From Minisyncoccota bacterium (lineage in GTDB: Bacteria; Patescibacteriota; Minisyncoccia; UBA6257; 2-01-FULL-56-20): 64,000 bases of DNA. The stretch spans positions 1,621-65,620 of the forward strand of contig DATKNI010000030.1 in the NCBI GenBank assembly GCA_035541415.1, read 5' to 3'. Shown one piece after another: positions 9,857 to 49,718 of this stretch. Positions within the stretch are counted from its first letter, which is position 1. Each line of letters starts with the position of its first letter. The notes beneath the pieces are model-generated. The model saw only the letters and a program-made list of their open reading frames with translations. It was not told where the DNA came from and searched no databases. A program made the position numbers and the translations under genes.

Positions 9857-9863
9857 GGTACCT

Positions 9864-10922: not shown

Positions 10923-10924
10923 TT

Positions 10925-11857
10925 ATGAAAATATTCCTTTCCGGCGGATCGGGCCATTTGGGAAGCGTGCTCGTGCCGCGTTTGCGGGCGGCAGGGCACG
11001 AAGTATCTGCCCCACGGAGCAAGGAATGCGACCTCATGGTTTTTCATGAATGTCTTTCTGCAACCAAAGGATCAGACATGATCATCCATGCCGCAGCCGT
11101 CGCCAAATCGCGCGTGGAACAGATGGCGCATCCATCGGAATCGTTCCGGCCGAACGTCTTGATGACGCTGCAGATCCTCGAAGCGGCGCGCCAAAACAAG
11201 GTAAAGAAGGTTTTGATCGTAAACTCGTTGCGGGCCTATGCCGATATGGAAGCTCCCTTTAAAGAGGAGGCCTTGCTCGAATCAAAGGTTCCGAGCATCA
11301 AGAACAAGACGTTTGGCTATTACGGCCTTTCGAAATGGGTTTCGATCCCTGCCGGGAGGGCATACGCAGCAGAGTTCGAAGACATGAAAATCCGCGAAGT
11401 CGTTTTTTCAAATCTTTACGGCCCGAATGATAAATTTGATTTCGATCCGCCCCCGGCCGTCCCTTCATTCATAAAAAAGATCGCCGCAGCGAAGAAGCAA
11501 GCGATGCCTGCGTTCGATGCGGGGAACAATCCGGGCGCGACGCTCGACCTTCTTTATGTCGACGACGCTGCGGAACTTATGATGCGGGTTGTTGAAAACT
11601 TCGGCGATGGATCATTTGACATCATCAATGGCGGCGGCGGACGCTCATACGAGCTTCGCGAGGTCGCCGATACCGTCGCTGAAGCAGTGGGCTTTAGTGG
11701 TAAAATTACTTGGAGCGGCGAAATAAAAACCCCGCCGATGTTTCTTGATACGGAGAAGGCACATTCGCAATTTGACTGGAAGCCCTCAACAACTTTATCG
11801 AAAGGGATCAACAATACCGTCGAGTGGTTCAATAAAAACTATGGCAAAACAAAATAA
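10925..11857 (+). CDS. NAD-dependent epimerase/reductase (GDP-6-deoxy-4-keto-sugar reductase, Fcl-like)
   Basis: Short-chain SDR fold (FLSGGSGHLGS), directly after gmd. ATG at 10925 follows the gmd stop. Confidence 0.55.
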   Translation: MKIFLSGGSGHLGSVLVPRLRAAGHEVSAPRSKECDLMVFHECLSATKGSDMIIHAAAVAKSRVEQMAHPSESFRPNVLMTLQILEAARQNKVKKVLIVNSLRAYADMEAPFKEEALLESKVPSIKNKTFGYYGLSKWVSIPAGRAYAAEFEDMKIREVVFSNLYGPNDKFDFDPPPAVPSFIKKIAAAKKQAMPAFDAGNNPGATLDLLYVDDAAELMMRVVENFGDGSFDIINGGGGRSYELREVADTVAEAVGFSGKITWSGEIKTPPMFLDTEKAHSQFDWKPSTTLSKGINNTVEWFNKNYGKTK

Positions 11858-14652: not shown

Positions 14653-14750
14653 GGACGTGTGCGCCATGCTTCCCAAAGCATGGCGCATTTTTTAACCCTT
14701 TTATCCTTTGACTTTCGGCGCAAACTGCGCCATTCTATACCTTGTATCCA

Positions 14751-15329
14751 ATGATTCACCCCTATCTCGAAGAATCAATCGCCCTCCAGAAAAAAGTATT
14801 GGAGGATAAAGCCATCGCTGCCACGTTCGATAAAATCGTGCATGCCACGCTCGCTAGCATCAAAAACGGCGGCAAGATTTTGGTTGCCGGCAACGGCGGC
14901 AGTGCTGCCGACGCACAGCACTTCGCGGCGGAATTCGTGGCAATGTACAAAATTGACCGCCGCGCCCATCCGGCGCTTGCGCTCACGACCGACACGTCGG
15001 TTTTAACCGCGGTGAGCAACGACCATCATTTTGACCGAGTTTTCGCGCGCCAGGTTGAAGCACTTGGGACAAAAGGCGACATCCTTTTCCTCCTCACGAC
15101 AAGCGGCAATTCAAAAAATCTTTTGAACGCCGTCCATGTGGCAAAACAGCGCGGCGTGACGACGGTTGCGCTCCTTGGCAAAGGTGGCGGACCGATGAAG
15201 GGCCTCGCTGACTACGAGATCATTGTTCCTTCAGACAACGTGCCGCGCATCCAAGAGGTGCAGAAGCTCATCTTGCACAGCGTTGCAGAAGAAGTGGAGA
15301 AGCGGCATTACAACGAATATCTTTCATAG
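14751..15329 (+). CDS. gmhA: D-sedoheptulose-7-phosphate isomerase
   Basis: SIS domain with the GNGGSAADAQHFAAE motif typical of GmhA. Confidence 0.8.
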   Translation: MIHPYLEESIALQKKVLEDKAIAATFDKIVHATLASIKNGGKILVAGNGGSAADAQHFAAEFVAMYKIDRRAHPALALTTDTSVLTAVSNDHHFDRVFARQVEALGTKGDILFLLTTSGNSKNLLNAVHVAKQRGVTTVALLGKGGGPMKGLADYEIIVPSDNVPRIQEVQKLILHSVAEEVEKRHYNEYLS

Positions 15330-21430: not shown

Positions 21431-22042
21431 ATGACCAAAGAAGAACTTATCCAATTTGAACAGGAGATAGCTGACGCCTATTGTGCCGGCCAAATCAGGG
21501 GCCCGGTGCATCTTTCTGATGGAAACGAAGACCAGTTGATCGAATTATTTAAAGGCATCAAAAAATCGGACTGGGTTTTTTCGACGTGGCGCAGCCATTA
21601 TCACGCGCTCCTTCACGGCGTTCCCAAAGAAGAGGTGAGAGCCGAGATCATGAAGGCCAACAGCATCACGCTCAGTTTCCCCGAGCACCGCTTTTTCACG
21701 TCCGCAATCGTAAACGGAATCACTCCGATCGCCGTCGGCGCCGCGATGGGCATAAAGAGAAAGGGAGAAGACCGGCATGTTTGGTGTTTTGTCGGTGACA
21801 TGGCGGCGGAAGCGGGAGTTTTCTATGAAAACGTAAAATATGCCGATAACCACGGCCTCCCGATCACGTTCGTTGTCGAAGACAACGGGCAGAGCGTCGG
21901 TACGCCGACGGATGTCGTCTGGGGATACGACAGATCGAAAGAGAAGCCGGATTATTTAAAATGGGACAGGAAGAATTTGATTTATTATCGTTACGAGAAA
22001 AAATGGCCTCACGTCGGGGCTGGCGTATGGGTGACATTCTAA
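21431..22042 (+). CDS. thiamine-diphosphate enzyme, E1-alpha-like (PP-domain) subunit
   Basis: 203 aa, ThDP-binding GDMA...N motif (CFVGDMAAEAGVFYENVKYADNHGLPITFVVEDNG). Confidence 0.6.
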   Translation: MTKEELIQFEQEIADAYCAGQIRGPVHLSDGNEDQLIELFKGIKKSDWVFSTWRSHYHALLHGVPKEEVRAEIMKANSITLSFPEHRFFTSAIVNGITPIAVGAAMGIKRKGEDRHVWCFVGDMAAEAGVFYENVKYADNHGLPITFVVEDNGQSVGTPTDVVWGYDRSKEKPDYLKWDRKNLIYYRYEKKWPHVGAGVWVTF

Positions 22043-22045
22043 ACT

Positions 22046-22588
22046 ATGAAATATCGTGAAGAATTAAGAAGGGCGGTCCTTTATCTCGCAGAACACCCGA
22101 AGACCATTTTTATCGGGCAGAGCGTTTCATATCCCGGCAATGCGATCTATACCGGATCCCTCAAGGATGTCCCAATGGAGAAAAAAATCGAAATGCCCGT
22201 ATTCGAAGAAACGCAAATGGGCATGTCTATCGGCCTCGCCATGGAAGGATTCATTCCGGTCAGCGTTTTCCCTCGGTATAATTTTTTGATTGTTGCGGCA
22301 AACCAGCTCATCAATCATTTGGATAAGATTCCTCATATCTCACATGGCAAACTTCGCCCGAAGGTGATCATAAAGACAATGGTGGGCGGCGTGCGGCCGC
22401 TTGATCCGGGAGTTCAGCACAAAAGCAACTTCACCGAGGCGTTCCGCCATCTCGTTTCGGAAAATATTGTCATCGAAGACCTCACCGAGCCTGAGATGAT
22501 ATTCCCTGCGTATCAGCGGGCGCTTGAAAGGGAAGATGGCAAGTCGACGATTCTGGTTGAGTACGGCGACTTTAATAAGGAAAAATAA
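22046..22588 (+). CDS. thiamine-diphosphate enzyme, E1-beta/transketolase pyrimidine-binding-domain subunit
   Basis: 180 aa Pyr-domain protein (FIGQSV...ETQMGMSIGLAMEG), translationally adjacent to the alpha-like subunit. Confidence 0.6.
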   Translation: MKYREELRRAVLYLAEHPKTIFIGQSVSYPGNAIYTGSLKDVPMEKKIEMPVFEETQMGMSIGLAMEGFIPVSVFPRYNFLIVAANQLINHLDKIPHISHGKLRPKVIIKTMVGGVRPLDPGVQHKSNFTEAFRHLVSENIVIEDLTEPEMIFPAYQRALEREDGKSTILVEYGDFNKEK

Positions 22589-22676: not shown

Positions 22677-23684
22677 ATGATTATCACGCGGACCCCATTT
22701 CGAATGTCATTTTTTGGCGGCGGGACGGACTATCCCGTCTGGTATGAAAAGCACGGAGGTGCGGTACTTTCGACTACAATCGATAGATTTTGTTATGTGA
22801 CGTGCCGTTACTATCCGCCGTTTTTTGACGCCAAGGTGCGCGTCGTTTGGTCAAAGATCGAACTCGTTCAAAACGCGAACGAACTTGAACATCCGATTGC
22901 ACGCCACACGTTAAATTTTTTAAATCTTCCCAAAAATATTGAAATTCATCACGCCGCCGATCTTCCGGCTCGCTCCGGCCTTGGTGCAAGTTCGTCGTTC
23001 ACCGTCGGTCTCTTGAACGCTCTCTATGCGTTGCTTGGGAAAAAGACAACTAAAGCGGATCTGGCTTCCGAGGCCATCCATATCGAGCGCGTGCTTGCCG
23101 GGGAAACCGTCGGCTCGCAGGACCAAGTGGCCGCCGCATTCGGCGGCTTCAATAAGATAGTTTTCCGCACCGACGGGAATATCGAAGTTATTCCTTTGAG
23201 CATTTCAGGCAATGTGCTTCGCGGCCTCAAAGATCGCTTGCTGCTTTTCTTCACCGGCCTTTCGCGCAGCGCTTCCGAAGTCGCGAGCGTACAGGTTAAG
23301 AATACTCCACAGAAAGAAAAAGAGCTGATAGCCATGCACGACATGGTGGACGAAGGGGTGAAATTTCTTGAAAACGGCGCACTCGACGACTTCGGCAAAC
23401 TGCTTCATGAAGCATGGCAGATGAAGCGGAGCTTGACGCCGCTCATCGCGAACGGCCACATCGATGCGATCTATGAAGCTGCGCGGAGCGCAGGCGCGAT
23501 CGGAGGCAAGCTTCTTGGTGCGGGCGGGGGAGGATTTATGCTCGTGTACGCGGATCCTTCCCGGCACAAGGCAATCAAGGAAAAACTTTCAAAATTCCTC
23601 TGCGTGCCATTCGACTTTGAACAAGAGGGGACGCAGGTTATCCACCAGAGCGGAGGCGTACTCGATGGTGTAAACTTTACATAA
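22677..23684 (+). CDS. hddA: GHMP sugar kinase, D-glycero-D-manno-heptose 7-phosphate kinase-like
   Basis: N-terminal RTPFRMSFFGGGTDYP and PARSGLGASSSF GHMP ATP-binding motif, colinear with HddA. Confidence 0.7.
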   Translation: MIITRTPFRMSFFGGGTDYPVWYEKHGGAVLSTTIDRFCYVTCRYYPPFFDAKVRVVWSKIELVQNANELEHPIARHTLNFLNLPKNIEIHHAADLPARSGLGASSSFTVGLLNALYALLGKKTTKADLASEAIHIERVLAGETVGSQDQVAAAFGGFNKIVFRTDGNIEVIPLSISGNVLRGLKDRLLLFFTGLSRSASEVASVQVKNTPQKEKELIAMHDMVDEGVKFLENGALDDFGKLLHEAWQMKRSLTPLIANGHIDAIYEAARSAGAIGGKLLGAGGGGFMLVYADPSRHKAIKEKLSKFLCVPFDFEQEGTQVIHQSGGVLDGVNFT

Positions 23685-26823: not shown

Positions 26824-27393
26824 ATGGACGACACCATAGCATTGGCATTTCTTGACCAGGACGGCGTGATCACAAAAGAAGTCCACCATCTCCATCGCAT
26901 GGAAGATTTGGAAATTCTTCCGAATGTCGCGAAGGCGATCCGCGCAATCCGGGCGAAAGGATTTAAGATTGCCGTCATCACGAACCAAGCCGCTGTTGCA
27001 AAAGGGATTGTCGAGCTCGATCAGGTTCTCGCCCTCCAAAAAGAAATCGTGCGCCGGCTTGCCGACGAGGGCGCCGTCATCGATGGCTATTTTTATTGCC
27101 CCCATCATCCGCAAGGGACGGTCGAGCCGTACAACCGTGAATGCGACTGCCGCAAGCCGGAGCCTGGCATGTTCAAAAGGGCGGCCGTAGAGTTCCAAGA
27201 AAAATTCGGCAAAAAAGTCGATTTCTCGGCGAGTGTTACGGTCGGTGATAAGACAGGCGATATCCTTGCCGGGCAAGCGGTCGGAACGCGGACCGTTTTG
27301 GTAGAGACCGGCTACGGCGGCAAAGACGGCGTGCACGAGGCAACCCCTGATTTCGTCGCCAAAGACCTCTTTGATGCGGTTCAGTACTTCTAA
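26824..27393 (+). CDS. gmhB: D-glycero-D-manno-heptose 1,7-bisphosphate phosphatase (HAD-IIIA)
   Basis: LDQDGVIT HAD motif I and YFYCPHHPQG...CDCRKPEPGM zinc-binding insert diagnostic for GmhB. Confidence 0.85.
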   Translation: MDDTIALAFLDQDGVITKEVHHLHRMEDLEILPNVAKAIRAIRAKGFKIAVITNQAAVAKGIVELDQVLALQKEIVRRLADEGAVIDGYFYCPHHPQGTVEPYNRECDCRKPEPGMFKRAAVEFQEKFGKKVDFSASVTVGDKTGDILAGQAVGTRTVLVETGYGGKDGVHEATPDFVAKDLFDAVQYF

Positions 27394-27460: not shown

Positions 27461-28180
27461 ATGAAAGGCGTTATTCTCGCAGGTGGAAACGGAACCCGAT
27501 TGCGTCCAGTGACCTTCGAAATTCCCAAACCCCTCATCACGATTAAGAAAAAGCCGCTCATCAATTATAATCTCGATCTTCTGACCGCGGCGCATGTTGA
27601 CGACGTCAAGGTGATTATTCGTCCGCAGGACGATCCGGATTACAAGCGCTGGCTCCGCGAATATGCGCCCCACTATCCTTCGATGAACATCGAGCTTATC
27701 CTCGAATCGGAGCCGATGGGGACGCTCGGCTATGTTTTCCATCATCTCCAATCGTGGATCGGCAAGGATGATGTGTTTGTGGTGAACGGCGACGTGATCC
27801 ACAAAGGCGTCGACGTGAAAGCGATGCTCAAGCACCACGGCACGATTGGCATGCCCGCGACGATCGCGCTCATCAAAGTGGATCGTCCCGACGATTATGG
27901 CACGGCAGTTCTTGACGGCCACACCATTACTGAATTTGCGGAAAAAAAGAAAGGCCTTCCCGCCGGCCTTGTAAACGCTGGCCTCTACATGATCACGAAC
28001 AAGGCGCTGAAGCACATTGCGGAAGCCGGCGTCACCGGTCCGAAATATTTAATGTTTGAAAAAGAGATGTTCCCGGTGCTCGCAAACAGCAAGAAACTCG
28101 GCGGCTTTGTTGCCGACGGCGGCATGTTCTACGATTGCGGCACGTTTGAACGCTGGGAGAAGGCGATCAACGAAGTTTAA
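27461..28180 (+). CDS. hddC: sugar-1-phosphate nucleotidyltransferase, heptose-1-phosphate guanylyltransferase-like
   Basis: N-terminal GVILAGGNGTRLRP..FEIPKPL NTP-transferase motif; directly after gmhB. Confidence 0.65.
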   Translation: MKGVILAGGNGTRLRPVTFEIPKPLITIKKKPLINYNLDLLTAAHVDDVKVIIRPQDDPDYKRWLREYAPHYPSMNIELILESEPMGTLGYVFHHLQSWIGKDDVFVVNGDVIHKGVDVKAMLKHHGTIGMPATIALIKVDRPDDYGTAVLDGHTITEFAEKKKGLPAGLVNAGLYMITNKALKHIAEAGVTGPKYLMFEKEMFPVLANSKKLGGFVADGGMFYDCGTFERWEKAINEV

Positions 28181-29685
28181 ACAATCGGTGCTGCCGGATC
28201 CTGCGTGGGAAAGATGAGCCGCTTCATTTCAATGAGGAGCGGCTCCCGGAAAAGGCGCAAAGCTCCAAAGAAAACGATCACCGAAATGACGATGGTTGCT
28301 ATCACGTTCAGATGGGCAAAATAAAGGCCAAGGGTGACAAGGCCCATGGCTGCGCTCGCGAAGACGATCTTTTTGAGATGCGGTGCCACTTCGAAGTAAT
28401 TAAGTTTTTTCATGATATGCCAGAGATACCAGTTGGTCACGATCTGCGTGATGAGGGTTCCGATGGCAGATCCCGTCATGCCGAACGGCGGAATGAGGAT
28501 GATGTCGAGCGCTACGTTCAACGCGCCAGCGATAGCGGAGGTGATAATGAGGCTCCGCTGGTGGTTGTAGGCGAATATGGCGTTGCTCACGATCGTCGCG
28601 GGGAAGTCGACGATCATTGTGAGCATGAGGATTTTGAACGCCAGGCTGCCTGATGCGTATGCGCCGCCAAAGATGAACGTCATGATGGGGGTTCCCAGAA
28701 TGAAACCGCCGATCGCGAGCGGAAGGGAGCCAATGAAGACGATGCTCACGGCCCGCTCCAGCGCCGCGCGGAAGCGCTCATTGTCTTTGCCCGCAAGGCG
28801 CGAGAAAAGCGGCAGGGTGCTGAATTGGATAACGGTGGGAACAAGATAGAGCACCTGCACGACGCGGATGGCGGCGGAGTAGATGCCGACTTCCGAAGCG
28901 CTCCGCATCCAGCTCAAGATGAGAATGTCGGCGTTCGTGAGGAGAAGGCCGAGCGCGCTCGTTACGGCAAACGGCCACGCCGCCTTGAGAACGGGGGAGA
29001 CGAGCGAGGACGTGAAATGCCGCGAAAGATCTTTGAAGTACGTGCGAATGATGATGATTGCAAGCGATATGCCGAGGATGTCTCCCCCAACGTATGCCCA
29101 CGCAAGCGATGACGGCGCTTTTACGAGCGTTATAAAAAGGAATCCAAAAAGGAGAATGCCGATATTCGTGAGGATGAATATCGCCGCGTCATACTCCATG
29201 TGCTCCATGCCGCGCGCAACGGATGTGAAGAAGTCGCGAAGCGTGTCGAGGGCGAGGATGATGGCGACGATCGGGAGCAGTGCCTTTGCTCCGGGCAGGG
29301 TCGAAAAGAACGGGGCAATAAAGATGATGACGCCAACGCCCACGAGCATGAGGACGATTTTCATGGCGAACGTCGTCGAGAAAAGCTTGTGGCGGTCCTC
29401 GTCGTCCGATTTTGCGATATCGCGCATGAGGATGCCGTTCAGGCCCGGATCCATGAAAAGCGTGAGGAAGCCGGAGAGCGTGATGGCGTAGGAAAACACG
29501 CCCCATCCTTCGGTGCCGAGGACGCGGGCGCCATAAATGACGATGGCGGCTTTGATAAATCGTCCGCCAAAATTGGAGACCGAAAGCCAAAAGCTGTTTT
29601 TGGCGATGGTCTGTTTCGCCGATTCATTCTTGAAAAGAAATGCCTTGATGCGGGCGGAAAACGGCGGTCGAGCTTCTGATTCCAT
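28177..29685 (-). CDS. Wzx-type polysaccharide flippase (MOP superfamily)
   Basis: About 500 aa with 12-14 TM helices, polysaccharide-biosynthesis-protein architecture. ATG at 29683-29685 (MESEARPP...) chosen over the longer upstream extension. Confidence 0.7.
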   Translation of the reverse strand: MESEARPPFSARIKAFLFKNESAKQTIAKNSFWLSVSNFGGRFIKAAIVIYGARVLGTEGWGVFSYAITLSGFLTLFMDPGLNGILMRDIAKSDDEDRHKLFSTTFAMKIVLMLVGVGVIIFIAPFFSTLPGAKALLPIVAIILALDTLRDFFTSVARGMEHMEYDAAIFILTNIGILLFGFLFITLVKAPSSLAWAYVGGDILGISLAIIIIRTYFKDLSRHFTSSLVSPVLKAAWPFAVTSALGLLLTNADILILSWMRSASEVGIYSAAIRVVQVLYLVPTVIQFSTLPLFSRLAGKDNERFRAALERAVSIVFIGSLPLAIGGFILGTPIMTFIFGGAYASGSLAFKILMLTMIVDFPATIVSNAIFAYNHQRSLIITSAIAGALNVALDIILIPPFGMTGSAIGTLITQIVTNWYLWHIMKKLNYFEVAPHLKKIVFASAAMGLVTLGLYFAHLNVIATIVISVIVFFGALRLFREPLLIEMKRLIFPTQDPAAPIV

Positions 29686-29759
29686 GGTTATTAGTGTACC
29701 GCAACCGCGGGACTTTCGCATTTTAGAATTTTTTAATCTCCGACGTGCTAGGGTTTCAT

Positions 29760-32012
29760 ATGCTTTATTTTTTACGGAATGCAATTGCGGTGGCAGCCAC
29801 CGTTAGCTTCGCCTTTTTCGTGTTGTGTCCGGCCGTTCATGCCGACGCTCCGGCAACGGCGACGGCTATGTTTTTTAACCAGCTCGACGACTCGTCGAAT
29901 TCGGTGGGAAGCTGGTACAACGACAATTGGTATCAGCTTGGCCGGGGATTCGCCGGCACCATCAACGCCATAACACTCGAAGGAATGGTCGACGCCGATA
30001 TGTTTTCCGCCTCCGAAATCTATCTCAAAGAATTCGAGGATCAAAATTATACGCGTCTCGTAACGACCTACACGATTTCCGACAATGCTCCTTTCGATCA
30101 TGACGGCTTCAAAAAAATAACTTTCGACCACCTTTCAATCCCGATCAACCCGAGCCATTATTACCGCCTCGATACGTTTCAAAATCGACAAAATACGAGC
30201 GTGATTCTCAAGGGGACGCCCGGCCTCGGTACGGCCATGCGGGACTGGTTTGTCTATGGCACGGGAAAAGTGGAAAGCACCTATCCGTTTTATCCCTACG
30301 TCATCGTCACCGGACAATTCCTCGAACCGCTCGTCATCGTGCCCGGCGTGATGGGGTCGGAACTCAGCGCTTCAGGGACCGATCTTTCGGCGGGCAAGCA
30401 GTATTGGCCCGATGTGACCGATATGGTGAATTCGGACGACGACGCATATCTCAATGCGCTTGCATTGGATGCGAACGGCATGCAGGTTGCGGGAAAGGAA
30501 ATGGCCGCGAGCGACATCGTGCGAGAGGCCACGGGAACCTACAACCGCCTTGTGGTGCCGATACCGATCGACGAAAAAATATACGGGGATCTCATCGCGC
30601 AATTCGTAAACGACGGCTATCACGAAGGAGAAAATCTTTTTGTTGCGCCGTACGATTGGCGCTTGGATCTCGCATCGTCTGCCCAAGCGGTGGGCGGCGT
30701 GATCCAAAACGCCGTGGCACATTCGCCCGACGGGAAAGTCAATATTATCGCCCATAGCATGGGCGGGCTGGCCATAAAACAATACCTGGCGGGGGTTGCC
30801 GACGCGTCGTTCATCCATAAGCTGATCCTTTCCGGAGTTCCGCAGCTTGGCTCGCCAATGATATTTAAAACATTGGAGTACGGCGACAACCTTGGGTTTT
30901 CGGTTGGACCATTCGACATTCTGAATCCCACGGAAGTGAAATCGATTGCGCAAAATATGCCGGGCATCTACGAACTTTTGCCGTCGCGGCGTTTTGTCTC
31001 GGTTGATGGCGGCTATGTTTCGCGCGACTCGCATGATGCGAATGGAAATGTTTCCACGCAAGCGCTTGGATTCGACGACACCAACGCATTCCTCCTTGCA
31101 AACCCCGGTGATTCGCGGAACGCGAGCCTGCTTTCGAGAGCCGACCAGTTCCATGCCGGACTCGACGCCCAGCCGATAGTAGGGTCTACGGGCGCCGCTG
31201 CCGCCGGCACGGAAATCATAAACGTGGTCGGCTGCGAGAACCCCACGCCCTCGCGCTACGACGTGCACGATGACGGTTCGATCGACGTTGATTGGGCGAA
31301 CGGGGACGGCAGCGTCCCGGTTGATTCGGCCATGAACCTTGCAAATGGCTATGAAAATTATTTTGTTTTGAACTCGGAAAATGGCGTTGACCACGAAGGC
31401 CTGGTCCGAGATTCTCCCATGCTCGCGTTTCTTCAAGGAGCCATTGACGGCACGCTCCCGTCGCTCGCGCTCCAATCGCTCGGCATGTCGACGGCAACGG
31501 AAGATTGCCTCGCGGGCCGCGGCGCCGATCGTCCTGCGACATTCGCGGTGAGCGCTTCGGGATCGAGCACGATCGATGTTTACGATGCCGCAGGCAATCA
31601 CGTGGGAGTGAATGCCGCGGGCGACGTCGATCTCCAAATTCCCGGGAGCTCCTACGACACGATTGGCGGCACCACGGTTGTGACGCTGCGGGCGCCGAGC
31701 ACGACTGCGGCAAGCGGCGCCTATTCGGTGACGGTCAAAAAATCAAAGACGGCATCGTCAAAAACAAAGGTTTCGGTGAAGGCGTACGATAGCGCCGTGA
31801 ATGTCGTCACGACAACGGTTTTCTCCGACGTTCCGCTCGATGCGCCGTCGTCATCGGCCACACTCACGATTCGAGCAACATCCACCCCCATCCTCACGGT
31901 CGATGAGGATGCCGCAGGGGCGGCTGCGACCGGCACGGTAATTGCGCCTGACGGCGCTCTCAGTTCGGCGGAGCTTCCGCTCACGGCTGCCTGCGTTCAG
32001 ATAAAAACATAA
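29760..32012 (+). CDS. secreted LCAT-family alpha/beta-hydrolase (lipase/acyltransferase-like) with C-terminal beta-rich domains
   Basis: Signal peptide (AVHA/DAP). PGVMGSEL, APYDWRLD and IIAHSMGG (GxSxG) are the three hallmark LCAT/PDAT-family motifs. The C-terminal ~300 aa are Ser/Thr/Val-rich beta-strand repeats. Confidence 0.55.
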   Translation: MLYFLRNAIAVAATVSFAFFVLCPAVHADAPATATAMFFNQLDDSSNSVGSWYNDNWYQLGRGFAGTINAITLEGMVDADMFSASEIYLKEFEDQNYTRLVTTYTISDNAPFDHDGFKKITFDHLSIPINPSHYYRLDTFQNRQNTSVILKGTPGLGTAMRDWFVYGTGKVESTYPFYPYVIVTGQFLEPLVIVPGVMGSELSASGTDLSAGKQYWPDVTDMVNSDDDAYLNALALDANGMQVAGKEMAASDIVREATGTYNRLVVPIPIDEKIYGDLIAQFVNDGYHEGENLFVAPYDWRLDLASSAQAVGGVIQNAVAHSPDGKVNIIAHSMGGLAIKQYLAGVADASFIHKLILSGVPQLGSPMIFKTLEYGDNLGFSVGPFDILNPTEVKSIAQNMPGIYELLPSRRFVSVDGGYVSRDSHDANGNVSTQALGFDDTNAFLLANPGDSRNASLLSRADQFHAGLDAQPIVGSTGAAAAGTEIINVVGCENPTPSRYDVHDDGSIDVDWANGDGSVPVDSAMNLANGYENYFVLNSENGVDHEGLVRDSPMLAFLQGAIDGTLPSLALQSLGMSTATEDCLAGRGADRPATFAVSASGSSTIDVYDAAGNHVGVNAAGDVDLQIPGSSYDTIGGTTVVTLRAPSTTAASGAYSVTVKKSKTASSKTKVSVKAYDSAVNVVTTTVFSDVPLDAPSSSATLTIRATSTPILTVDEDAAGAAATGTVIAPDGALSSAELPLTAACVQIKT

Positions 32013-32143
32013 CCATGTCCCGCAAGGTCAAAATATGGATCATCGGCATAGCCATCGTGATCATAGCGATTCTCGTAGCCGCCTATTATACGATTCCATT
32101 GTTCGTCCATCTTGACGGATTCGCATCGTAAAAACGGATCGTA

Positions 32144-35794: not shown

Positions 35795-35872
35795 GTTTGC
35801 TCGTCCATTTATTATACTGGATTATACGAAAACAAGGCATTTTGGTGATAGTATTGATTTATACCATCTCAC

Positions 35873-36544
35873 ATGAAGAACCCATTCTGGCGTTATAAGG
35901 GATTCTGGCCGCCCGAGCGGAAGCGATCGATGTATTTGGGGATCGTGCTCCTCGTGCTCGCCATCATCGTGCAGTTCACGCTGGGGCCATTCGGGTCGCG
36001 CCACGCGATGACCGCAGCCCCGGCCGGGGATATTTTTCTCGACAATCTTCCGGTTGTAAATCTGACGGGCGTGATTGTTTTCTGGACCCTCGCGCTGTGG
36101 GTGCTTGCGTGGTGCCTCCTCGTCACGCGTCCGCAGTATTTGATTTTCGGCACCAAGGCGATTGCCGTCTACATTATGTGCCGGGCGTTTTTTGTGAGCC
36201 TCACGCATATCGGCCCGTACCCGATTAATTTTTCGCCGAGCCCGGAAAATATCGGATTCCATTTTTATCAGCTGTGGACGTATCAGGGAAATTTTTTCTT
36301 TTCGGGGCACACCGCATTCCCGTTTCTCATGGCGCTCATCTTTTGGGATGAGAAGATCTGGCGCCGCTTTTTCCTGTTCCTCTCGTTTTTCTTCGGCCTC
36401 ACGGTGCTCCTTGCGCACGTCCACTATTCGATCGACGTATTTGCCGCGCCGTTCATCACCTACGCCACGTTTGTCGCGACGGCCCGGATGTTCCACGACG
36501 ATTACAAGCTTTTGCCGGGAGAGCGGCCCGGTTTGCCGGCGTAG
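35873..36544 (+). CDS. PAP2_C / sphingomyelin-synthase-like lipid phosphotransferase family membrane protein
   Basis: 6-TM protein with C2 (SGHTAF) and C3 (HYSIDV) acid-phosphatase motifs, spaced as in SMS/IPC-synthase-like PAP2_C enzymes. Confidence 0.5.
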   Translation: MKNPFWRYKGFWPPERKRSMYLGIVLLVLAIIVQFTLGPFGSRHAMTAAPAGDIFLDNLPVVNLTGVIVFWTLALWVLAWCLLVTRPQYLIFGTKAIAVYIMCRAFFVSLTHIGPYPINFSPSPENIGFHFYQLWTYQGNFFFSGHTAFPFLMALIFWDEKIWRRFFLFLSFFFGLTVLLAHVHYSIDVFAAPFITYATFVATARMFHDDYKLLPGERPGLPA

Positions 36545-36584
36545 CTTCTTGCCGCTCGCGCGAGATCGCGATATCATTACCCGT

Positions 36585-37445
36585 ATGGAACAAAACGAAC
36601 ACGATAAGGAACAAAAACACGAGGCGGAGGCGCACGGCTCTCTGGAGTCTGATGCGCGCGCGGCGGAGGCCGTTTCGGCTCCGGTGAAGAAAGATAAATT
36701 TTTGCCGGTTAGCATTCTGATTGCGGCGATCGTGATCGGCGGGTCAATTGTGTTCGCGACGGTTTACCACCCTGCGGCGCAGCAGCCTGCAACCGACGGA
36801 ACCGGCGCCCAGCCGGGCGGCGCGGCGCAAACGGGCAATCTCGCCGGAACGGAAGAAACGGCAGCCCAGATCAATACGCTCGGCCCGCGCGACGCCATCC
36901 TCGGCGACCCGAATGCGCCGATAACGCTCATCGAATACGGCGACTACCAGTGTCCGTTCTGCAGCCGCTACTTCACCACGCTTGAACCGACGATCCAGCA
37001 GCAATATATCAACACCGGAAAGGTGAAGATGGTGTTCCGGAATTTTGCATTCCTCGGCTCCGAGTCGACGCTCTCTGCCGAAGCAGCCGAATGTGCGGAA
37101 GATCAAAACCAGCTGTGGGCTTATCACGACGCGTTGTACAAGGCGAAAGCGGCTGATTTTGCGAAGGGGAATGGGGAAGATGATGGGTTCTTTACGCAGG
37201 CATTTCTCCTCCAAACCGCGCAGAATCTCCATCTCAATGTTTCGACGTTCACGTCGTGCCTCACAGCCCACAAGAACCAGAGCCTTGTCGCGCAGGAATA
37301 CCAGGATGCCGCAAAGGCCGGCGTAAACTCGACGCCCTCCACGTTCATTAACGGCAAGATGGTTGTGGAAACGGATGGTTCGAGCGCTGGTGCGGATAAT
37401 GCTTTGATCCTCAAGGAGCTCGCCGACGCGACAGCCGGAAAATAG
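36585..37445 (+). CDS. DsbA-like thioredoxin-fold thiol:disulfide oxidoreductase, membrane-anchored
   Basis: N-terminal TM anchor, CPFC active site in IEYGDYQCPFCSRYF. ATG at 36585 follows the PAP2_C stop. Confidence 0.7.
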   Translation: MEQNEHDKEQKHEAEAHGSLESDARAAEAVSAPVKKDKFLPVSILIAAIVIGGSIVFATVYHPAAQQPATDGTGAQPGGAAQTGNLAGTEETAAQINTLGPRDAILGDPNAPITLIEYGDYQCPFCSRYFTTLEPTIQQQYINTGKVKMVFRNFAFLGSESTLSAEAAECAEDQNQLWAYHDALYKAKAADFAKGNGEDDGFFTQAFLLQTAQNLHLNVSTFTSCLTAHKNQSLVAQEYQDAAKAGVNSTPSTFINGKMVVETDGSSAGADNALILKELADATAGK

Positions 37446-37466
37446 TTACACGAGCAAACAAGAAAT

Positions 37467-37490
37467 CCCGGGGCGGCCCCGGGTTTTTTT
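37467..37490 (+). terminator. rho-independent terminator (cccggggcggccccggg + T7)
   Basis: GC-rich hairpin followed immediately by TTTTTTT, 20 nt after the DsbA stop. Confidence 0.7.
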
Positions 37491-37495
37491 ACGGC

Positions 37496-37523
37496 TTGAC
37501 ATATAAGGATATGCTAATATGAT
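37496..37523 (+). promoter_or_regulatory. sigma70-like promoter TTGACA-16-TATGAT giving a leaderless arsR transcript
   Basis: Perfect -35 hexamer. The -10 ends 6 nt before the ATG at 37530, so the mRNA is probably leaderless. Confidence 0.45.
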
Positions 37524-37529
37524 TATTAC

Positions 37530-37877
37530 ATGCCCACCAACTGCAAAGAAATCGAACGCTTTGGAAAGGGGATCGGCAATGAAGCCCGGTACCGGATCCT
37601 CCAAGCGCTTTTGAAGGGCCGCAAAACCGTGAGCGAGCTTGTGACGATCGCGCGCTTGAGCCAGCCCGCCGTTTCCCAGCATCTCAAAACGCTCAAAGCA
37701 AGCGAACTCGTCATCGATGAGCGGCGCGGCAAAGAAGTGTTTTATGCGGTGAACGCCGAGTATCTTCTTGAGCTGCTCGCCCGGCTTTCGCAGGATGCCC
37801 GTCCGTGCATGGACGGGAGAGCGAAAGCGAAAGCGGCGAAAAGGCCAAGGATGTCGAAAATGCAAAAGGTCAAATAA
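37530..37877 (+). CDS. ArsR/SmtB-family metalloregulatory transcriptional repressor
   Basis: Winged HTH with ELVTIARLSQPAVSQHLKTLK. Confidence 0.75.
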   Translation: MPTNCKEIERFGKGIGNEARYRILQALLKGRKTVSELVTIARLSQPAVSQHLKTLKASELVIDERRGKEVFYAVNAEYLLELLARLSQDARPCMDGRAKAKAAKRPRMSKMQKVK

Positions 37878-37897
37878 TAATTAATAAAAATTTAACA

Positions 37898-38491
37898 ATG
37901 GATCCGATCAAGATTAAGGTGATTATCGGCAGCACGCGTCCGGGCCGTTTCAGCGAGAAGCCGGCGCGGTGGATTTTTGAAGAAGCAAAGAAAGTCGAAG
38001 GCGTGGAAGCGGAGCTGCTCGATCTGCGGGATTATCCGTTGCCGTTTTTTGACGAGGCGCTGCCGCCTTCGATGACAAAAGAGCCGTATGCGAATCCCGT
38101 CGTACAGCAATGGACCGCAAAAATTGCCGATGGAGACGCGTTCATCGTACTGACGCCGGAATATAACCACGGCCCGTCGGCGGTCCTCAAGAATGCGATT
38201 GACTATGTCGGCAAGGAGTGGAACAAGAAGCCGGTCGGTTATGTGAGCTGGGGAAGCGTGTCCGGCGCTCGCGTCGTGGAGATGCTCCGCTTGACTGCGG
38301 TCGAGCTCCAAATGGCGCCGATCCGGCAGGCGCTCTATCTGCCCGGCACGGTGTATATGGCCGTGAAAGACGTGCCGACGGAAGCCATAAAACCGGAGAT
38401 GTTTGAAGCGGTCGCTCCGGCACAAGCCGCGTTTTTTGCCCAACTTATGTGGTGGGCGCGGGCGCTCAAGACGGCGCGGTCAGCCGGGTAA
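37898..38491 (+). CDS. NADPH-dependent FMN reductase (flavodoxin-like fold)
   Basis: IKVIIGSTRPGRFSEKPARWI N-terminus typical of NADPH-dependent FMN reductase/ArsH-like proteins. Immediately downstream of arsR. Confidence 0.7.
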   Translation: MDPIKIKVIIGSTRPGRFSEKPARWIFEEAKKVEGVEAELLDLRDYPLPFFDEALPPSMTKEPYANPVVQQWTAKIADGDAFIVLTPEYNHGPSAVLKNAIDYVGKEWNKKPVGYVSWGSVSGARVVEMLRLTAVELQMAPIRQALYLPGTVYMAVKDVPTEAIKPEMFEAVAPAQAAFFAQLMWWARALKTARSAG

Positions 38492-38544
38492 CGGGCGTTC
38501 GGCTAAATTGCCCGCAAGCGGCTCGCGGCGTACAATGACCCTAT

Positions 38545-38736
38545 ATGGCCAAATCGTGGACAACGCTCATCGTGGGAGTCTGGATCGTGATCTCTCCCTG
38601 GCTCCTCGGATTCGCGGATATCTCCGTCATGAAATGGAGCAACCTCGCGGCCGGAACGGTAGTCATCCTGTTCGCCGTCTGGGACATCTTCGGAGAAAAG
38701 CCGCAAACACCATCGGTCGAAGAACATAAAAAATAA
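38545..38736 (+). CDS. SPW-repeat small membrane protein
   Basis: 63 aa, two TM helices, SPW motif (ISPWLLGF). Confidence 0.5.
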   Translation: MAKSWTTLIVGVWIVISPWLLGFADISVMKWSNLAAGTVVILFAVWDIFGEKPQTPSVEEHKK

Positions 38737-38751
38737 TCAACATTTATCATC

Positions 38752-39003
38752 ATGCCAACCGCACAGCACAAAGTAACCATCTACAGCACGCCGTCATGCG
38801 TGTACTGCAAGATGGCAAAAGAATTCTTTGCCAAGAACGGCGTTTCATATCAAGAGCACAACGTTGCATCCGATTTGGAGGCCCGCAAGGAAATGGTTGA
38901 AAAATCGCAGCAGCTCGGCGTTCCGGTCATCGAAGTCGATGACAACATCATCATCGGTTTCGACCAGAAGACGCTCGAACAGGTTCTGGAACTCAAGAAA
39001 TAA
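38752..39003 (+). CDS. glutaredoxin-like protein (YruB/NrdH-type)
   Basis: 83 aa with a CVYC active site (IYSTPSCVYCKMAKEF) and a thioredoxin fold. Confidence 0.75.
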   Translation: MPTAQHKVTIYSTPSCVYCKMAKEFFAKNGVSYQEHNVASDLEARKEMVEKSQQLGVPVIEVDDNIIIGFDQKTLEQVLELKK

Positions 39004-39012
39004 ATGACGGCT

Positions 39013-39072
39013 GGATGTTCTTGCCCTTTGCCTCCGAGCGAAGACGAGCGTCGGCAAAGGACAAGAACATCC
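39013..39072 (+). promoter_or_regulatory. 20-bp inverted repeat hairpin between the glutaredoxin-like gene and trxB
   Basis: ggatgttcttgccctttgcc ... ggcaaaggacaagaacatcc (19/20 complementary) with a 20-nt loop; read directly. Confidence 0.4.
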
Positions 39073-39088
39073 ATTCCGTAAAATATTC

Positions 39089-40024
39089 ATGATTTACGAC
39101 CTTATCATTATCGGCGGCGGCCCCGGCGGCGTAGCCGCAGGCATTTATGCCGCACGCAAAAAAATGAAATCCGTTTTGATAACGGATTCGTTCGGCGGCC
39201 AATCGCTCAACTCCGCCGGCATCGAAAACTGGATCGGCACAAAAGCGATCTCGGGTTTTGATCTGGCAAAAAATCTTGAGGAACATCTGCGATCGCAGGC
39301 TGGCATCGAGATTGTTGCGCCGGACATGGTGACGAAGATCGAAAAGAAAGATGTGGGAATTCCAAACGGGGGATTTTTGGTCACCACGCAAAGCGGAAAA
39401 ACATTTGAAACAAAGTATGTGCTCGTCACGGCCGGCAGCCGGCGCAAACGCCTCGGCGTCCCGGGCGAAGACGCATTCGACGGCAAGGGCGTGGTGTTCT
39501 GTACCACGTGCGATGCGCCGCTCTTTGAAGGCAAGACGGTTGCCGTGGTGGGCGGCGGCAACTCGGCGCTCGAAAGCGTGCTCGACCTCATTCCCTATGC
39601 TTCAAAAATATATTTAATCGTCCGCTCGAATGTCCTGAAGGGCGATCCCGTTTCGCAGGAAAAAGTGAAAACCCATCCGCAAGTTACGATCATGTGGAAC
39701 ACCGTCATCGAAGAGATCCGCGGCGATAAGTTTGTGACGGGCGTCCGGTACAAAGACACGCAGACGGGCGAATCAAAAGAACTCGCCCTCGACGGCGTAT
39801 TCGTCGAAGTCGGCCTCACGCCGAATTCTGATTTCACGAAAGGGCTTTTGGAAACGGAGCAATATGGCCATATCCACGTTGACCATCAGACCCAGGCCAC
39901 GTCCCAGCCGGGCATCTGGGCGGCGGGGGATGTAACCGACGGCCTCTATCAGCAGAACAATATCTCCGTGGGCGACTCCATTAAGGCGGTTTTGAACATC
40001 TACGACAAGATTAAAACGGGATAA
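39089..40024 (+). CDS. trxB: thioredoxin-disulfide reductase
   Basis: FAD motif IIGGGPGG, redox-active CTTCD, NADPH motif VVGGGNSA. Confidence 0.8.
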   Translation: MIYDLIIIGGGPGGVAAGIYAARKKMKSVLITDSFGGQSLNSAGIENWIGTKAISGFDLAKNLEEHLRSQAGIEIVAPDMVTKIEKKDVGIPNGGFLVTTQSGKTFETKYVLVTAGSRRKRLGVPGEDAFDGKGVVFCTTCDAPLFEGKTVAVVGGGNSALESVLDLIPYASKIYLIVRSNVLKGDPVSQEKVKTHPQVTIMWNTVIEEIRGDKFVTGVRYKDTQTGESKELALDGVFVEVGLTPNSDFTKGLLETEQYGHIHVDHQTQATSQPGIWAAGDVTDGLYQQNNISVGDSIKAVLNIYDKIKTG

Positions 40025-46630: not shown

Positions 46631-47893
46631 ATGGGATTTGGACCTAAAAAAGCAATCGCACTCATCATTTTGCTCGTGATTGCCGCGGCTCTCATCTATG
46701 CGTTTGTGCATGCTTCGCGCAACGTCACGGTGGGCGATGACACCGGAATAACCTCGGCTCAATCGGCGGATCATGCGGCGAGCGGCACGAGTACGAGCAC
46801 CGGCACGAGCGCCGGAACGAGCACGGTTTCGGCGAGTACGTCCGCAACCGGCACATCCGGGATCGGCGATCCGGCGGCGCCGATCACGCTCGATTTCAAT
46901 GAGGGCCAGTGGGACAATTCAACGACCACGCGCGTGGATGCGGCGACCTATGATGCAAAAGTGCTCGCGCTCGCAAATGTTCCCCTCAGAAAATATACGG
47001 TCACGTCAACGATCACGGTCGGAACGACCACGGCAGTGATCACAACGACCACGCTGAAACGCGCGCCGAGCGTCTGGCCGGTGACGGACGCGCCGTATCC
47101 GCTCGCGGGAGCGCTCTTGCCGTTCAATCGCATTGTTGCATACTACGGCAATTTTTATTCCACGCAGATGGGCGTGCTCGGCGAATATCCTCCGCAGGAA
47201 ATGCTTGCGAGACTCGCGTCAACGTCCGCGGCGTGGGCCGCAGCCGATCCTTCGACGCCGGTGATCCCCGCGCTCGACTACATTGCGGTTTCGGCGCAGG
47301 GGAGCGCGGGTTCCGACGGGAAGTATCGTTTGCGGATGCCGCCGGATCAGATTGAGAAAGCTATCGGCCTCGCAAACCAAGTGCACGGCATCGTTTTTCT
47401 CGATCTTCAGGTTGGCTTGAGCAGCGTTGAAACGGAAGTCCCGCTTCTCGAACAATTTTTGAAGATGCCAAACGTGGAGCTCTCGCTTGATCCCGAGTTC
47501 GATATGTGGGGCGGCCATCGGCCCGGCACGGTGATCGGCACGATGGATGCAAACGACATCAACTGGGCGGCGAATTATCTTGCGAACCTCGTGGCGGCCA
47601 ATAATCTGCCGCCGAAAATTCTCGTGGTGCACCGGTTCACCGAACCGATGGTCACGAACTATAAAAAGATTTTGCCCCTGCCGCAGGTGCAGATCGTGAT
47701 GGACATGGACGGCTTTGGCCCGCCCGCCCAGAAGCTCTCAACGTACAACGATTTCATCGCCCCGGAACCGGTCCAATTCACCGGGTTCAAGCTATTCTAT
47801 AAGAACGACATTCTGGTGCCGGGAAGCCATCTTTTGACCCCCAAGGAGCTCTTGGGGCTTTCTCCCCAGCCGAGTTATATCCAATACCAGTAA
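46631..47893 (+). CDS. hypothetical membrane-anchored extracytoplasmic protein with a Ser/Thr-rich linker
   Basis: N-terminal TM, a low-complexity S/T/G linker (GTSTSTGTSAGTSTVSASTSATGTSG), then a ~300-aa globular domain of unknown family, possibly a TIM-barrel hydrolase-like fold. Confidence 0.4.
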   Translation: MGFGPKKAIALIILLVIAAALIYAFVHASRNVTVGDDTGITSAQSADHAASGTSTSTGTSAGTSTVSASTSATGTSGIGDPAAPITLDFNEGQWDNSTTTRVDAATYDAKVLALANVPLRKYTVTSTITVGTTTAVITTTTLKRAPSVWPVTDAPYPLAGALLPFNRIVAYYGNFYSTQMGVLGEYPPQEMLARLASTSAAWAAADPSTPVIPALDYIAVSAQGSAGSDGKYRLRMPPDQIEKAIGLANQVHGIVFLDLQVGLSSVETEVPLLEQFLKMPNVELSLDPEFDMWGGHRPGTVIGTMDANDINWAANYLANLVAANNLPPKILVVHRFTEPMVTNYKKILPLPQVQIVMDMDGFGPPAQKLSTYNDFIAPEPVQFTGFKLFYKNDILVPGSHLLTPKELLGLSPQPSYIQYQ

Positions 47894-48515: not shown

Positions 48516-49718
48516 TTATTTTCTTACCGGGAAAACGAGATACCAGACTTTTGCCGCAACGTTGCGCGCGGGACCGGTGAGCGGGAAATGATGGATGTCG
48601 ATGAAGGGCAGGCTGTTGCATTCGATGACGCCGCACCGCTGTTTGCGCCACGAGACCGCCATGTCGTTCATGATGAAGTCCACGCCGAAGAGCGGGTCAT
48701 CAACATACCGCGCGATTTTCAAAAAAAGTTCGCAGTTGTCGGGATGGATGGCTTCGATTTCCGTCGTTGACGCGCCGAACGCGCGGCTCACTTTTGGATG
48801 AAGGATGACCATGCGGTCTTTTGCGGGAACGCTCGTGAGCGAAAGATTCTGGCTCGCGAGCACGAGGGGATCAATCGAGAGTTCATGGAACACCGGCCCG
48901 CGACGCAATGGATTTTTATTTTCACGATCAATCAGTTCTTGCACGCTGTGCGTGCCGTCGCCTGTGACGTGCGGCGGTTCGCGGCGCATGACGCCGGCGA
49001 TTTCGCCGCCAACGAGCGTGATGCGGAACACGAATCCCGGCAATTCTTCCTCGACGGCAACCGAAGGCGAAATTTCTTTTGCTTTTGCAAATGCATTCCG
49101 CACGGCTTCTTCCGTCGTGAGATGCAAATACGTGTGGCGGCTCCGCGATCCGAGCGCGGGTTTTATGATGACGGCGTCTGCGCGCCGTGCCGTTACGATT
49201 GAGCGGAAGACTGCTTCGGCTTGCGCAACGTTCGTCACGGATTTGCCAAGCGGCACCGGGATGTCCTGGGCGGCAAAGCGTTCAAGGATGATGCCTTTGT
49301 CGTCCATCCAATCCTGCGCGGTATCGTTCGCGAGGCGCGGCCGGGGAAGGCCGTCGAAGACGCGCGTATCGCCCTCATAGCTTGCAAAATAGATGTTCCG
49401 GGCGAGTCCGAACGGACGGAACTCCCGCATCGCGATGCCGCGGCGCTCGGCTTCCTCCCAGATGACGCGCGTGCGATCCGTGGTTTGGGCGTCGGGATGG
49501 CGCACGATGGTGCCGAGGCGGAGGCGTGCGGCAAGGCCGAAAAGCGGAGGGGCAATGCGGCCGGGTTTGAGCGCTGCGACGGCGGGGCGCACGACGTTCC
49601 AGACGATCTCGGCGGGTTTTGAGATGTAACCAAAAAAAGCGTCCGCGCGGACGTTCCAGCGCTCGATGGCGTGCGACACGGTTGCCGGACCGCAGTCGGG
49701 GCAGGCCGTTTGTTCCAT
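48516..49718 (-). CDS. ATP-grasp enzyme, cyanophycin-synthetase N-terminal-domain-like (stand-alone)
   Basis: 400 aa. ATP-grasp organisation colinear with the CphA N-terminal half (GDG.HSV.ELI...N.P.RRG..HE..L..I....GVDF). No Mur-ligase-type C-terminal domain. Confidence 0.5.
   Translation of the reverse strand: MEQTACPDCGPATVSHAIERWNVRADAFFGYISKPAEIVWNVVRPAVAALKPGRIAPPLFGLAARLRLGTIVRHPDAQTTDRTRVIWEEAERRGIAMREFRPFGLARNIYFASYEGDTRVFDGLPRPRLANDTAQDWMDDKGIILERFAAQDIPVPLGKSVTNVAQAEAVFRSIVTARRADAVIIKPALGSRSRHTYLHLTTEEAVRNAFAKAKEISPSVAVEEELPGFVFRITLVGGEIAGVMRREPPHVTGDGTHSVQELIDRENKNPLRRGPVFHELSIDPLVLASQNLSLTSVPAKDRMVILHPKVSRAFGASTTEIEAIHPDNCELFLKIARYVDDPLFGVDFIMNDMAVSWRKQRCGVIECNSLPFIDIHHFPLTGPARNVAAKVWYLVFPVRK

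Follow-up and report, generated by a model that had tools for sequence, protein, structure and literature searches.

What does a large, apparently exported enzyme of the lecithin:cholesterol acyltransferase (LCAT) type do for a bacterium whose phylum, to our knowledge, has no known pathway for making its own membrane fatty acids? The question is raised by a gene at positions 29760..32012 on the plus strand of a 64,000-nucleotide stretch of contig DATKNI010000030.1 (positions 1,621 to 65,620, assembly GCA_035541415.1; hereafter the window), which encodes a predicted secreted hydrolase/acyltransferase of 750 residues in the family of LCAT and lysosomal phospholipase A2 (LPLA2), referred to below as the lipase. 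The source organism is a Paceibacteria-type member of the Patescibacteria, or candidate phyla radiation (CPR), a group that accounts for a large share of bacterial diversity and has fatty-acid membranes; NCBI now puts 'Candidatus Paceibacterota' within the phylum Minisyncoccota. We lean, with moderate confidence, towards the view that the lipase would be a host-interface phospholipase A/transacylase, targeted to glycan and accompanied by a self-protecting or docking micro-protein. This reading is favoured because the protein carries export signals, its surface module is shared with lytic and toxic payloads, the toxin Tle4 is a relative, a partner gene is linked to it and its phylum is reported to lack lipid synthesis. 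Scavenging or remodelling of foreign lipids, which the initial annotation of the gene had proposed from the sequence alone, is the best functional reading. Its support comes from evidence that the initial annotation lacked, namely an origin within the CPR, a targeting module shared with other proteins and the partner gene.

Membership of the lipase in the LCAT/LPLA2 family is ordinary and secure. Three hallmark motifs had been named in the initial annotation, and they were found in the order given there, PGVMGSEL at residue 195, APYDWRLD at residue 296 and IIAHSMGG at residue 329, far beyond chance, with a match to PF02450 (LCAT) in the Pfam scan (68.8 bits, where the cut-off is 21; E=6.7e-19). 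All other alpha/beta-hydrolase Pfam families scored below their own cut-offs on the lipase protein, and PGAP1 gave no match at all, so that the best match was not an unrelated hydrolase such as a PGAP1-like enzyme without the lid. In a single-sequence search of solved structures, the only significant matches were human LCAT and LPLA2, and a profile built from 41 relatives recovered LCAT (3.8e-18), LPLA2 (2.2e-17) and Tle4, an effector of a type VI secretion system (T6SS; 6.1e-14).

The catalytic domain spans residues 189-590 (30324..31529, plus strand, as for the other lipase features given here) and includes membrane-binding and cap-like accessory subdomains. Its PGVMGSEL motif (residues 195-202, 30342..30365) corresponds by alignment to PGCLGNQL of LCAT, the first oxyanion-hole strand. 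The profile alignment placed S333, D516 and H545 on LCAT S181, D345 and H377, respectively, which supplies the Asp and His partners that the proposed nucleophile needed: Ser333 lies in AHSMGG (codon 30756..30758), Asp516 in GDGSV (31305..31307), equivalent to GDDTV of LCAT, and His545 in VDHEGL (31392..31394). Among the retrieved relatives, the Ser was kept in 119 of 120, the Asp in 115 of 115 ungapped sequences and the His in 112 of 112, and P195 and G196 were kept in 118 of 120; the PGxxGxxL and PYDWR motifs aligned to their LCAT equivalents and were nearly invariant. The catalytic triad is intact at the sequence level, and its conservation rules out a catalytically dead adhesin. In the AlphaFold2 (AF2) model of the lipase (predicted local distance difference test score, pLDDT, 81.6; predicted template modelling score, pTM, 0.84), the catalytic region was mostly above 90, and LPLA2 and LCAT were the top Foldseek matches (E down to 1.9e-17, target TM-score 0.72), with the accessory subdomains specific to these enzymes, membrane-binding and cap, retained on the alpha/beta-hydrolase core.

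Both LPLA2 (PLA2G15) and LCAT contain disulfides, are secreted or luminal and can hydrolyse or transacylate at the lipid interfaces where they act. The lipase resembles them in the positions of the Ser-Asp-His triad and in the PGxxGxxL, PYDWR and xHSMG motifs. In contrast, it is only about 18-19% identical to them, it is a bacterial (CPR) protein paired with a small membrane-protein gene, it adds an N-terminal jelly-roll and a conserved C-terminal beta-sandwich, and it has a family-specific Cys492-Cys583 pair instead of the C50-C74 disulfide loop of LCAT. This loop was not present in the alignment, with a deletion at C50 and no Cys in residues 189-491; it belongs to the vertebrate enzymes, and PF02450 does not require it.

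The lipase also has the features of a protein secreted via Sec, as judged from its N-terminus. The gene appears in the list of open reading frames (ORFs) of the window as one long frame, 29745/29760-32012 (+), and inspection of the sequence showed an AGGG 6 nt upstream of the ATG at 29760, from which the 750-residue product starts. The NCBI record (VMU07_03105, "hypothetical protein") sets the start 10 codons downstream of this ATG, and P0001 (740 aa, Candidatus Paceibacterota metagenome-assembled genome, MAG) is the identical protein under the NCBI start. Read from 29760, the protein begins with a Sec-type signal peptide at residues 1-28 (MLYFLRNAIAVAATVSFAFFVLCPAVHA, followed by D; 29760..29843), recognised from the hydropathy profile and a cleavage-type site. 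A signal peptide had been claimed in the initial annotation, and the claim holds: the hydrophobic N-terminus has R6 in its n-region, a hydrophobic core at residues 7-22 (hydropathy peaking at residues 7-19) and V-H-A at positions -3 to -1, with the break between VHA and D after A28. The AF2 pLDDT was below 50 over residues 1-33.

The two family-specific cysteines also point to the outside of the cell. The span between Cys492 and Cys583 covers 31233..31508; 95 of 120 relatives had Cys at both positions, and in all 13 relatives in which residue 492 was not Cys and residue 583 was aligned, the latter was not Cys either. Because both Cys are co-conserved among relatives, the pair probably forms a disulfide outside the cytoplasm, by which the catalytic domain would be fastened at its end to the linker. 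A redox cluster at 36348-40024 (+), with a DsbA-like thioredoxin, an FMN reductase and a thioredoxin-reductase-like flavoprotein, flanks the glycan island described below, and the same type of cluster lies beside the island in the related locus L003 (loci carrying relatives are numbered with L and proteins with P). Such a cluster fits oxidative folding of exported proteins, for example a lipase with a Cys pair. A sortase anchor was considered for an LPLTA sequence near the lipase C-terminus and was ruled out, as this sequence is followed by neither a hydrophobic segment nor a charged tail.

Between the signal peptide and the catalytic domain lies a module of about 160 residues (29-188, 29844..30323) that carries no annotation and had been missed in the initial annotation. 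Its motifs are SWYxDNWYxLGxGFxGT, EFxDxxY, YYRLxT..QNxSVILxGT and YxFYPY. The model built from a 42-sequence alignment had a pLDDT of 93.1 and 11 strands in an all-beta fold, a beta-jelly-roll of the type found in carbohydrate-binding modules (CBMs) and phage receptor-binding proteins. The fold is shared with CBM22, CBM6, CBM35, CBM36 and CBM32 and with phage receptor-binding jelly-rolls (Bxb1 gp29 and the phi812 baseplate protein), whereas the module, at no more than 12% identity to these fold relatives, falls outside every Pfam CBM and PHROG family: Pfam gave no match in residues 1-188 and PHROG none for the module.

The module is rare. When 1.84 billion representatives were scanned in full with HMMER, a 12-sequence profile recovered only 70 proteins, of which 66 reached E<=1e-10, and in these proteins of 190-1590 aa the module may be N-terminal, internal or C-terminal. 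Pfam analysis of 54 carriers identified Peptidase_M23 in 20, LTD in 6, RHS/DUF6531 in 4 and LCAT in 4, with single cases of a Zn-dependent phospholipase C (PLC) and papain-like peptidases, and no CBM families. The module stands C-terminal to M23 and LTD (M23...module, LTD...module) and N-terminal to the RHS and LCAT domains (module-DUF6531-RHS, module-LCAT), and one Liptonbacteria protein has two copies ahead of its LCAT domain. The N-terminus of an RHS/YD-repeat protein is 47% identical to the module (E=1e-35). Carriers include P0102 (L008, 6001-9855) and P0128 (L011, 7001-9673); the RHS carrier has IS110/recombinase and restriction-modification genes around it, and a 191-aa ORF comes next. 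A link between the module and glycan clusters was ruled out, since the RHS and M23 carriers examined lie outside such clusters. On the basis of its modelled fold and its partners, the module would be a binder of the cell surface, probably of glycan, that aims envelope-active enzymes at their target. This recalls the polymorphic toxins, in which likewise one module is recombined with envelope-damaging payloads, here M23, RHS, PLC and LCAT-like domains, and a small adjacent gene diverges fast, whereas the payload of the lipase is central and not C-terminal.

Downstream of the catalytic domain, residues 591-737 (31530..31970) form a beta-sandwich of about 11 strands (pLDDT 75-91), followed by a short tail. 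The initial annotation had located the three motifs in the first ~450 residues and read the last ~300 as low-complexity beta-strand repeats that suggested a cell-surface stalk or Ig-like domains. The catalytic domain in fact runs to about residue 590, Asp516 and His545 lie within the supposed stalk, and no tandem repeats were found in the sandwich, a search for them giving one trivial 30-nt array only; what stands is a beta-sandwich of biased composition (A/T/S/V/G 65%, entropy 3.54 bits). The sandwich had no Pfam, NCBIfam or PHROG family match, and a CsgH-like NCBIfam match in this domain was rejected as non-significant (E=0.1). BLAST coverage extended from query residue 189 to about 735, down to about 28% identity, and because the sandwich is conserved together with the catalytic domain, it is, as far as sequence conservation indicates, an integral part of the Patescibacteria lipase family and no optional stalk.

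The distribution of the family agrees with this. Labelled relatives, of 560-1280 aa, came from Paceibacterota, Colwellbacteria, Taylorbacteria, Pacebacteria or the 'Patescibacteria group', and they carry variable extra domains (CBM96, LamG-like, Big_13, beta-helix and LTD). A scan of GTDB species representatives detected lipase relatives in at least 252 genomes. Among the matches listed, those spanning the sandwich came from Paceibacterota, Yanofsky-, Nomura-, Falkow- and Magasanikbacteria, Minisyncoccia, Microgenomates and Saccharibacteria-labelled MAGs, all under Patescibacteria labels apart from two short contigs, in a Methanoregula and a Thermosynechococcus bin. These contigs, L024 (4980 bp, Methanoregula sp. 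bin) and L038 (2889 bp, Thermosynechococcus bin), both carry full-length CPR-type homologues; their placement is probably mis-binning, and it could reflect a physical association of symbiont and host. Matches to the catalytic domain only, among those listed, came from Acidobacteria, Planctomycetes, Alcanivorax, Bradyrhizobium and others. The statement that LCAT-type enzymes are uncommon in bacteria, made in the initial annotation, is only partly true in view of the many species-representative genomes with a relative: LCAT-type domains are not rare in bacteria, and it is the sandwich-bearing architecture that appears to be CPR-specific.

A highly non-random feature of the locus is a small gene directly after the lipase. 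A micro-ORF at 32015..32131 (+), 2 nt after the lipase stop, is predicted to encode a 38-aa single-pass membrane protein (MSRKVKIWIIGIAIVIIAILVAAYYTIPLFVHLDGFAS); it lacks annotation, and its L001 orthologue was likewise missed by the annotator. Orthologues of 35-38 aa lie directly 3' of the lipase gene in L001, L002, L003 and L009 and share a basic N-terminus, a transmembrane segment and a C-terminal motif of the [FI][HR][LF]xG type. At distant loci the next gene also encodes a small membrane protein, of 34-146 aa with 1-4 predicted transmembrane segments, in 14 of 18 GTDB loci and in L006, L007, L010 and L093. Over all, 23 of 27 loci had a small membrane-protein gene directly after the lipase, compared with 3 of 110 control genes (Fisher p=5e-19), the controls being further long ORFs, taken from part of the loci that had been fetched and judged by the same criteria. 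The partner proteins fall into several sequence sub-families, most compared pairs having no detectable mutual similarity, and such divergence is the pattern that would be expected of immunity or adaptor genes. We regard the micro-protein as a candidate partner or immunity protein of the lipase. A role of the downstream gene as a lipase-specific foldase (Lif) was ruled out, 35-38 aa being far too small.

The pairing bears on one alternative, namely that the lipase is a generic secreted lipase or esterase that feeds the cell on lipids or polyesters from its environment, plays no part specific to a host and has a downstream gene by coincidence. That relatives with the catalytic domain only occur in free-living Acidobacteria, Planctomycetes, Alcanivorax and Bradyrhizobium, and that the weaker structural matches include lipases and polyhydroxybutyrate (PHB) depolymerase, would suit this explanation, and if it were right the find would be modest. 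However, the gene pairing is highly non-random, and the version with the sandwich was found, among the matches listed, in Patescibacteria-labelled MAGs apart from the two short contigs; we consider a generic lipase very unlikely.

Another parallel is Tle4, the closest bacterial structural relative of the lipase. Tle4 (PA1510/TplE) is a T6SS phospholipase effector of P. aeruginosa, the structure of which was solved with its immunity protein Tli4 (PDB 4r1d), and it is a bacterial membrane-targeting lipase with a homologous catalytic domain. It is encoded next to a protective partner gene, and the conserved neighbour of the present lipase gene is a candidate for such a partner. The two systems differ in that the lipase is closer to LPLA2 and has a Sec signal peptide for export, and no T6SS genes (VgrG/Hcp/PAAR) were found in the scanned window genes or related loci. 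Whereas Tli4 is periplasmic, the neighbour of the lipase gene encodes an integral membrane protein of 34-146 aa with no PADLOC or PHROGs match; scans of the module, the C-terminal domain and the whole lipase with the same two resources also gave no match.

The surroundings of the gene suggest a different role. The window holds a glycan island of about 31 kb, about half of its length, which includes Wzy_C, GT11, GDP-mannose dehydratase, epimerases, DegT, SIS (GmhA-like), GHMP kinase, HAD, NTP-transferase, several GT2, Wzx, Bac_transf, DedA/VTT and PAP2_C genes. Because Bac_transf, Wzx and Wzy_C are present, the island is taken to use undecaprenyl-phosphate (Und-P). In the window the lipase gene lies between Wzx and Bac_transf, on the strand opposite to both, and the same placement was found in L001, L002 and L003/4 (52-63% identity), whereas in L009 (58% identity) it is co-directional within a differently organised glycan cluster. 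It is conceivable from this that the lipase serves envelope biogenesis: after Wzx has flipped an Und-P-linked glycan, acyl chains of phospholipid would be transferred to a glycan or glycolipid, making or anchoring a lipoglycan, in the manner of PagP or the mycolyltransferases, which use a phospholipid-type donor and no CoA. The position between the flippase and the priming Bac_transf in the window, L001, L002 and L003/4 and the location within a glycan cluster in L009 speak for such a role, and LCAT-family chemistry suits CoA-free extracellular acyl transfer. We nevertheless think it unlikely, since members beyond the closest clade lie outside glycan clusters, since in four of the five island loci neither neighbour shares the strand of the lipase, since the module is common to M23 peptidases, RHS toxins and PLC and not to glycan enzymes, and since an island filling about half of the window makes co-location less improbable than it looks. 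The distant members in question, P0021 and P0023 by a DprA/type IV pilus cluster, P0017 by ribosomal protein genes and P0122 adjoining an AbiEii (toxin-antitoxin-type) gene, also rule out a family-wide link to glycan clusters. The embedding in a glycan island on which the initial annotation remarked is real in the window and the closest clade and does not extend to these members. The functional connection that it drew to the PAP2_C and DedA genes is weak, distant members not being beside such genes; the DedA/VTT and PAP2 genes of the island are presumably for carrier-lipid recycling (cf. DedA/UptA and BcrC/PgpB), which we take as the simpler reading.

A second alternative also keeps the enzyme at home. 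As a surface lysophospholipase/transacylase with the micro-protein as its dock, the lipase might re-tailor scavenged lipids in the producer's own membrane; conversion of diacyl lipids to lysolipids and back, as a means of setting the curvature of ultrasmall cells, would be one example. In favour stand the transacylation known for LPLA2 and LCAT and the conserved linkage to a membrane protein that the producer itself makes. It has also been proposed that CPR modify the lipids they acquire, and their cells are enriched in lysolipids (PMC7242380). On the other hand, the variable adhesin-like N- and C-terminal domains of the relatives (CBM96, LamG-like, Big_13, beta-helix and LTD) look outward-facing, the module recurs on RHS toxins and on lytic M23 enzymes, and the closest bacterial structural relative is the toxin Tle4. 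Own-membrane housekeeping seems to us improbable, to much the same degree as a role in envelope biogenesis.

Several observations weigh against the host-interface reading preferred here. The lipase is inside a glycan island in five of the five closest loci, in two arrangements, and this placement could point to work on the producer's envelope and not to an attack on a host. The assignment of the module to the CBM type holds at the fold level only (<=12% identity), and the micro-protein had no detectable homology to any known immunity family in the PADLOC and PHROGs scans. Loss of the C50-C74 loop may mean that interfacial recognition differs from that of LCAT. Finally, the single relative from this branch of the phylum that is in culture is reported to be a parasite of an archaeon (PMC12281837); the host of the present organism could be archaeal, and archaeal ether lipids would not serve as substrates of the lipase.

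Reports on the physiology of the phylum lend interest to an enzyme of this kind. Patescibacteria were reported to be without lipid synthesis (PMC11665869; PMC7242380; PMC13059738), and according to papers of 2024-2026 no mechanism of lipid uptake or breakdown has been identified in them (PMC11665869; PMC13059738). Phospholipase A has been suggested as the source of CPR lysolipids (PMC11665869; PMC7242380; PMC13059738). In the literature on PF02450/LCAT-like proteins in Patescibacteria, we found no description of the lipase family, the module or the gene pair.

Considering the above results, we propose a plausible model for a host-interface lipase. Ser333, activated by His545 and Asp516, would attack an ester-linked acyl chain of a glycerophospholipid at the membrane, resulting in an acyl-enzyme, and the acyl group would then pass to water, giving lysolipid and fatty acid (phospholipase A), or to the hydroxyl of a lipid, as a transacylation. 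As ATP and CoA are required in neither case, the reaction would be able to proceed extracellularly. The jelly-roll module most likely sets the enzyme on a cell-surface glycan, be it that of the host, of prey or of the producer's own island, and docking of this kind would bring the catalytic domain to the place where symbiont and host meet. The most likely task of the co-transcribed 38-aa membrane protein is to protect the producer membrane or to serve as its partner, as an immunity protein or a dock. The net role would be damage to the host membrane and/or a supply of acyl lipids, released or transferred, to an organism from a group reported to be unable to make lipids.

The immediate surroundings of the gene required some correction. 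The divergent intergenic region between the Wzx-type flippase gene and the lipase gene covers 29686..29759 (74 bp) and contains the AGGG before ATG 29760. The flippase ORF as called, 28177-29784 (-), is too long by 33 codons, and its overlap with the lipase start is false; read from the internal ATG at 29685 (-), the flippase has 502 aa, compared with 501-503 aa in its orthologues, and this ATG is most likely the true start. The promoter and terminator scan of the lipase gene region found no sigma-70 consensus promoter and two terminator-like hairpins, both within the lipase gene and in a number no higher than chance. Further along, a PAP2_C/PAP2 gene at 35873-36544 (+; E=3.6e-8) lies under a longer antisense ORF at 35822-36715 (-) without a family match, and the real gene is that on the plus strand, which matches PAP2_C genes of 223-224 aa in L001 and L002.

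Other genes of the window give some indication of the surface glycan. The SIS_2 isomerase, GHMP kinase, HAD phosphatase and nucleotidyltransferase genes at 14742-15329, 22677-23684, 26824-27393 and 27461-28180 (all +) look like a four-step pathway to a nucleotide-activated heptose (GmhA/HddA/GmhB/HddC type), and a similar gene set adjoins the lipase in L001 and L009. A cluster at 8890-11857 (+) with GT11 (fucosyltransferase family), GDP-mannose 4,6-dehydratase and an epimerase/reductase suggests a surface glycan with fucose or another 6-deoxyhexose; a Wzy_C polymerase/ligase lies at 5745-7226. At 21431-22588 (+), inside the island, is a split thiamine pyrophosphate (TPP) enzyme pair, an E1_dh/TPP-binding protein of 203 aa and a Transket_pyr protein of 180 aa, which may be a sugar-modifying two-carbon transferase; a transketolase-like pair occupies the matching position in L001. 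Elsewhere in the window, a Peptidase_A4 gene (eqolisin/scytalidoglutamic peptidase family) at 61597-62553 (-; E=4.3e-36) belongs to a family that is unusual in bacteria and may encode another secreted hydrolase of the symbiont. Four ORFs of 378-420 aa at 46631-47893 (+), 48516-49718 (-), 53576-54736 (-) and 54741-55877 (+) had no Pfam match at E<=1e-4.

The new elements of this locus are the CPR-specific architecture, a rare shared targeting module and a conserved pair of lipase and small membrane-protein genes; two protein modules lacking annotation, and a micro-ORF overlooked by gene callers, are defined here. As a phylum-wide, predicted-secreted family of LPLA2/LCAT fold with an intact triad and a tightly linked small membrane-protein gene, the lipases are clonable candidates for how Patescibacteria obtain or attack membrane lipids. 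A bolder and, in our judgement, doubtful extension is that the family is a lipid-acquisition device of the Patescibacteria, a surface-held transacylase independent of CoA and ATP that docks on cell-surface glycan and moves acyl chains from host phospholipids to the symbiont's own lysolipids. If this were true, it would account for fatty-acid membranes without lipid synthesis and for the enrichment of lysolipids, presenting the acceptor or shielding the bilayer of the symbiont would fall to the small membrane protein, and the module would mark out a system, specific to the CPR, by which lipases, M23 hydrolases and RHS toxins are directed to the envelope of the host.

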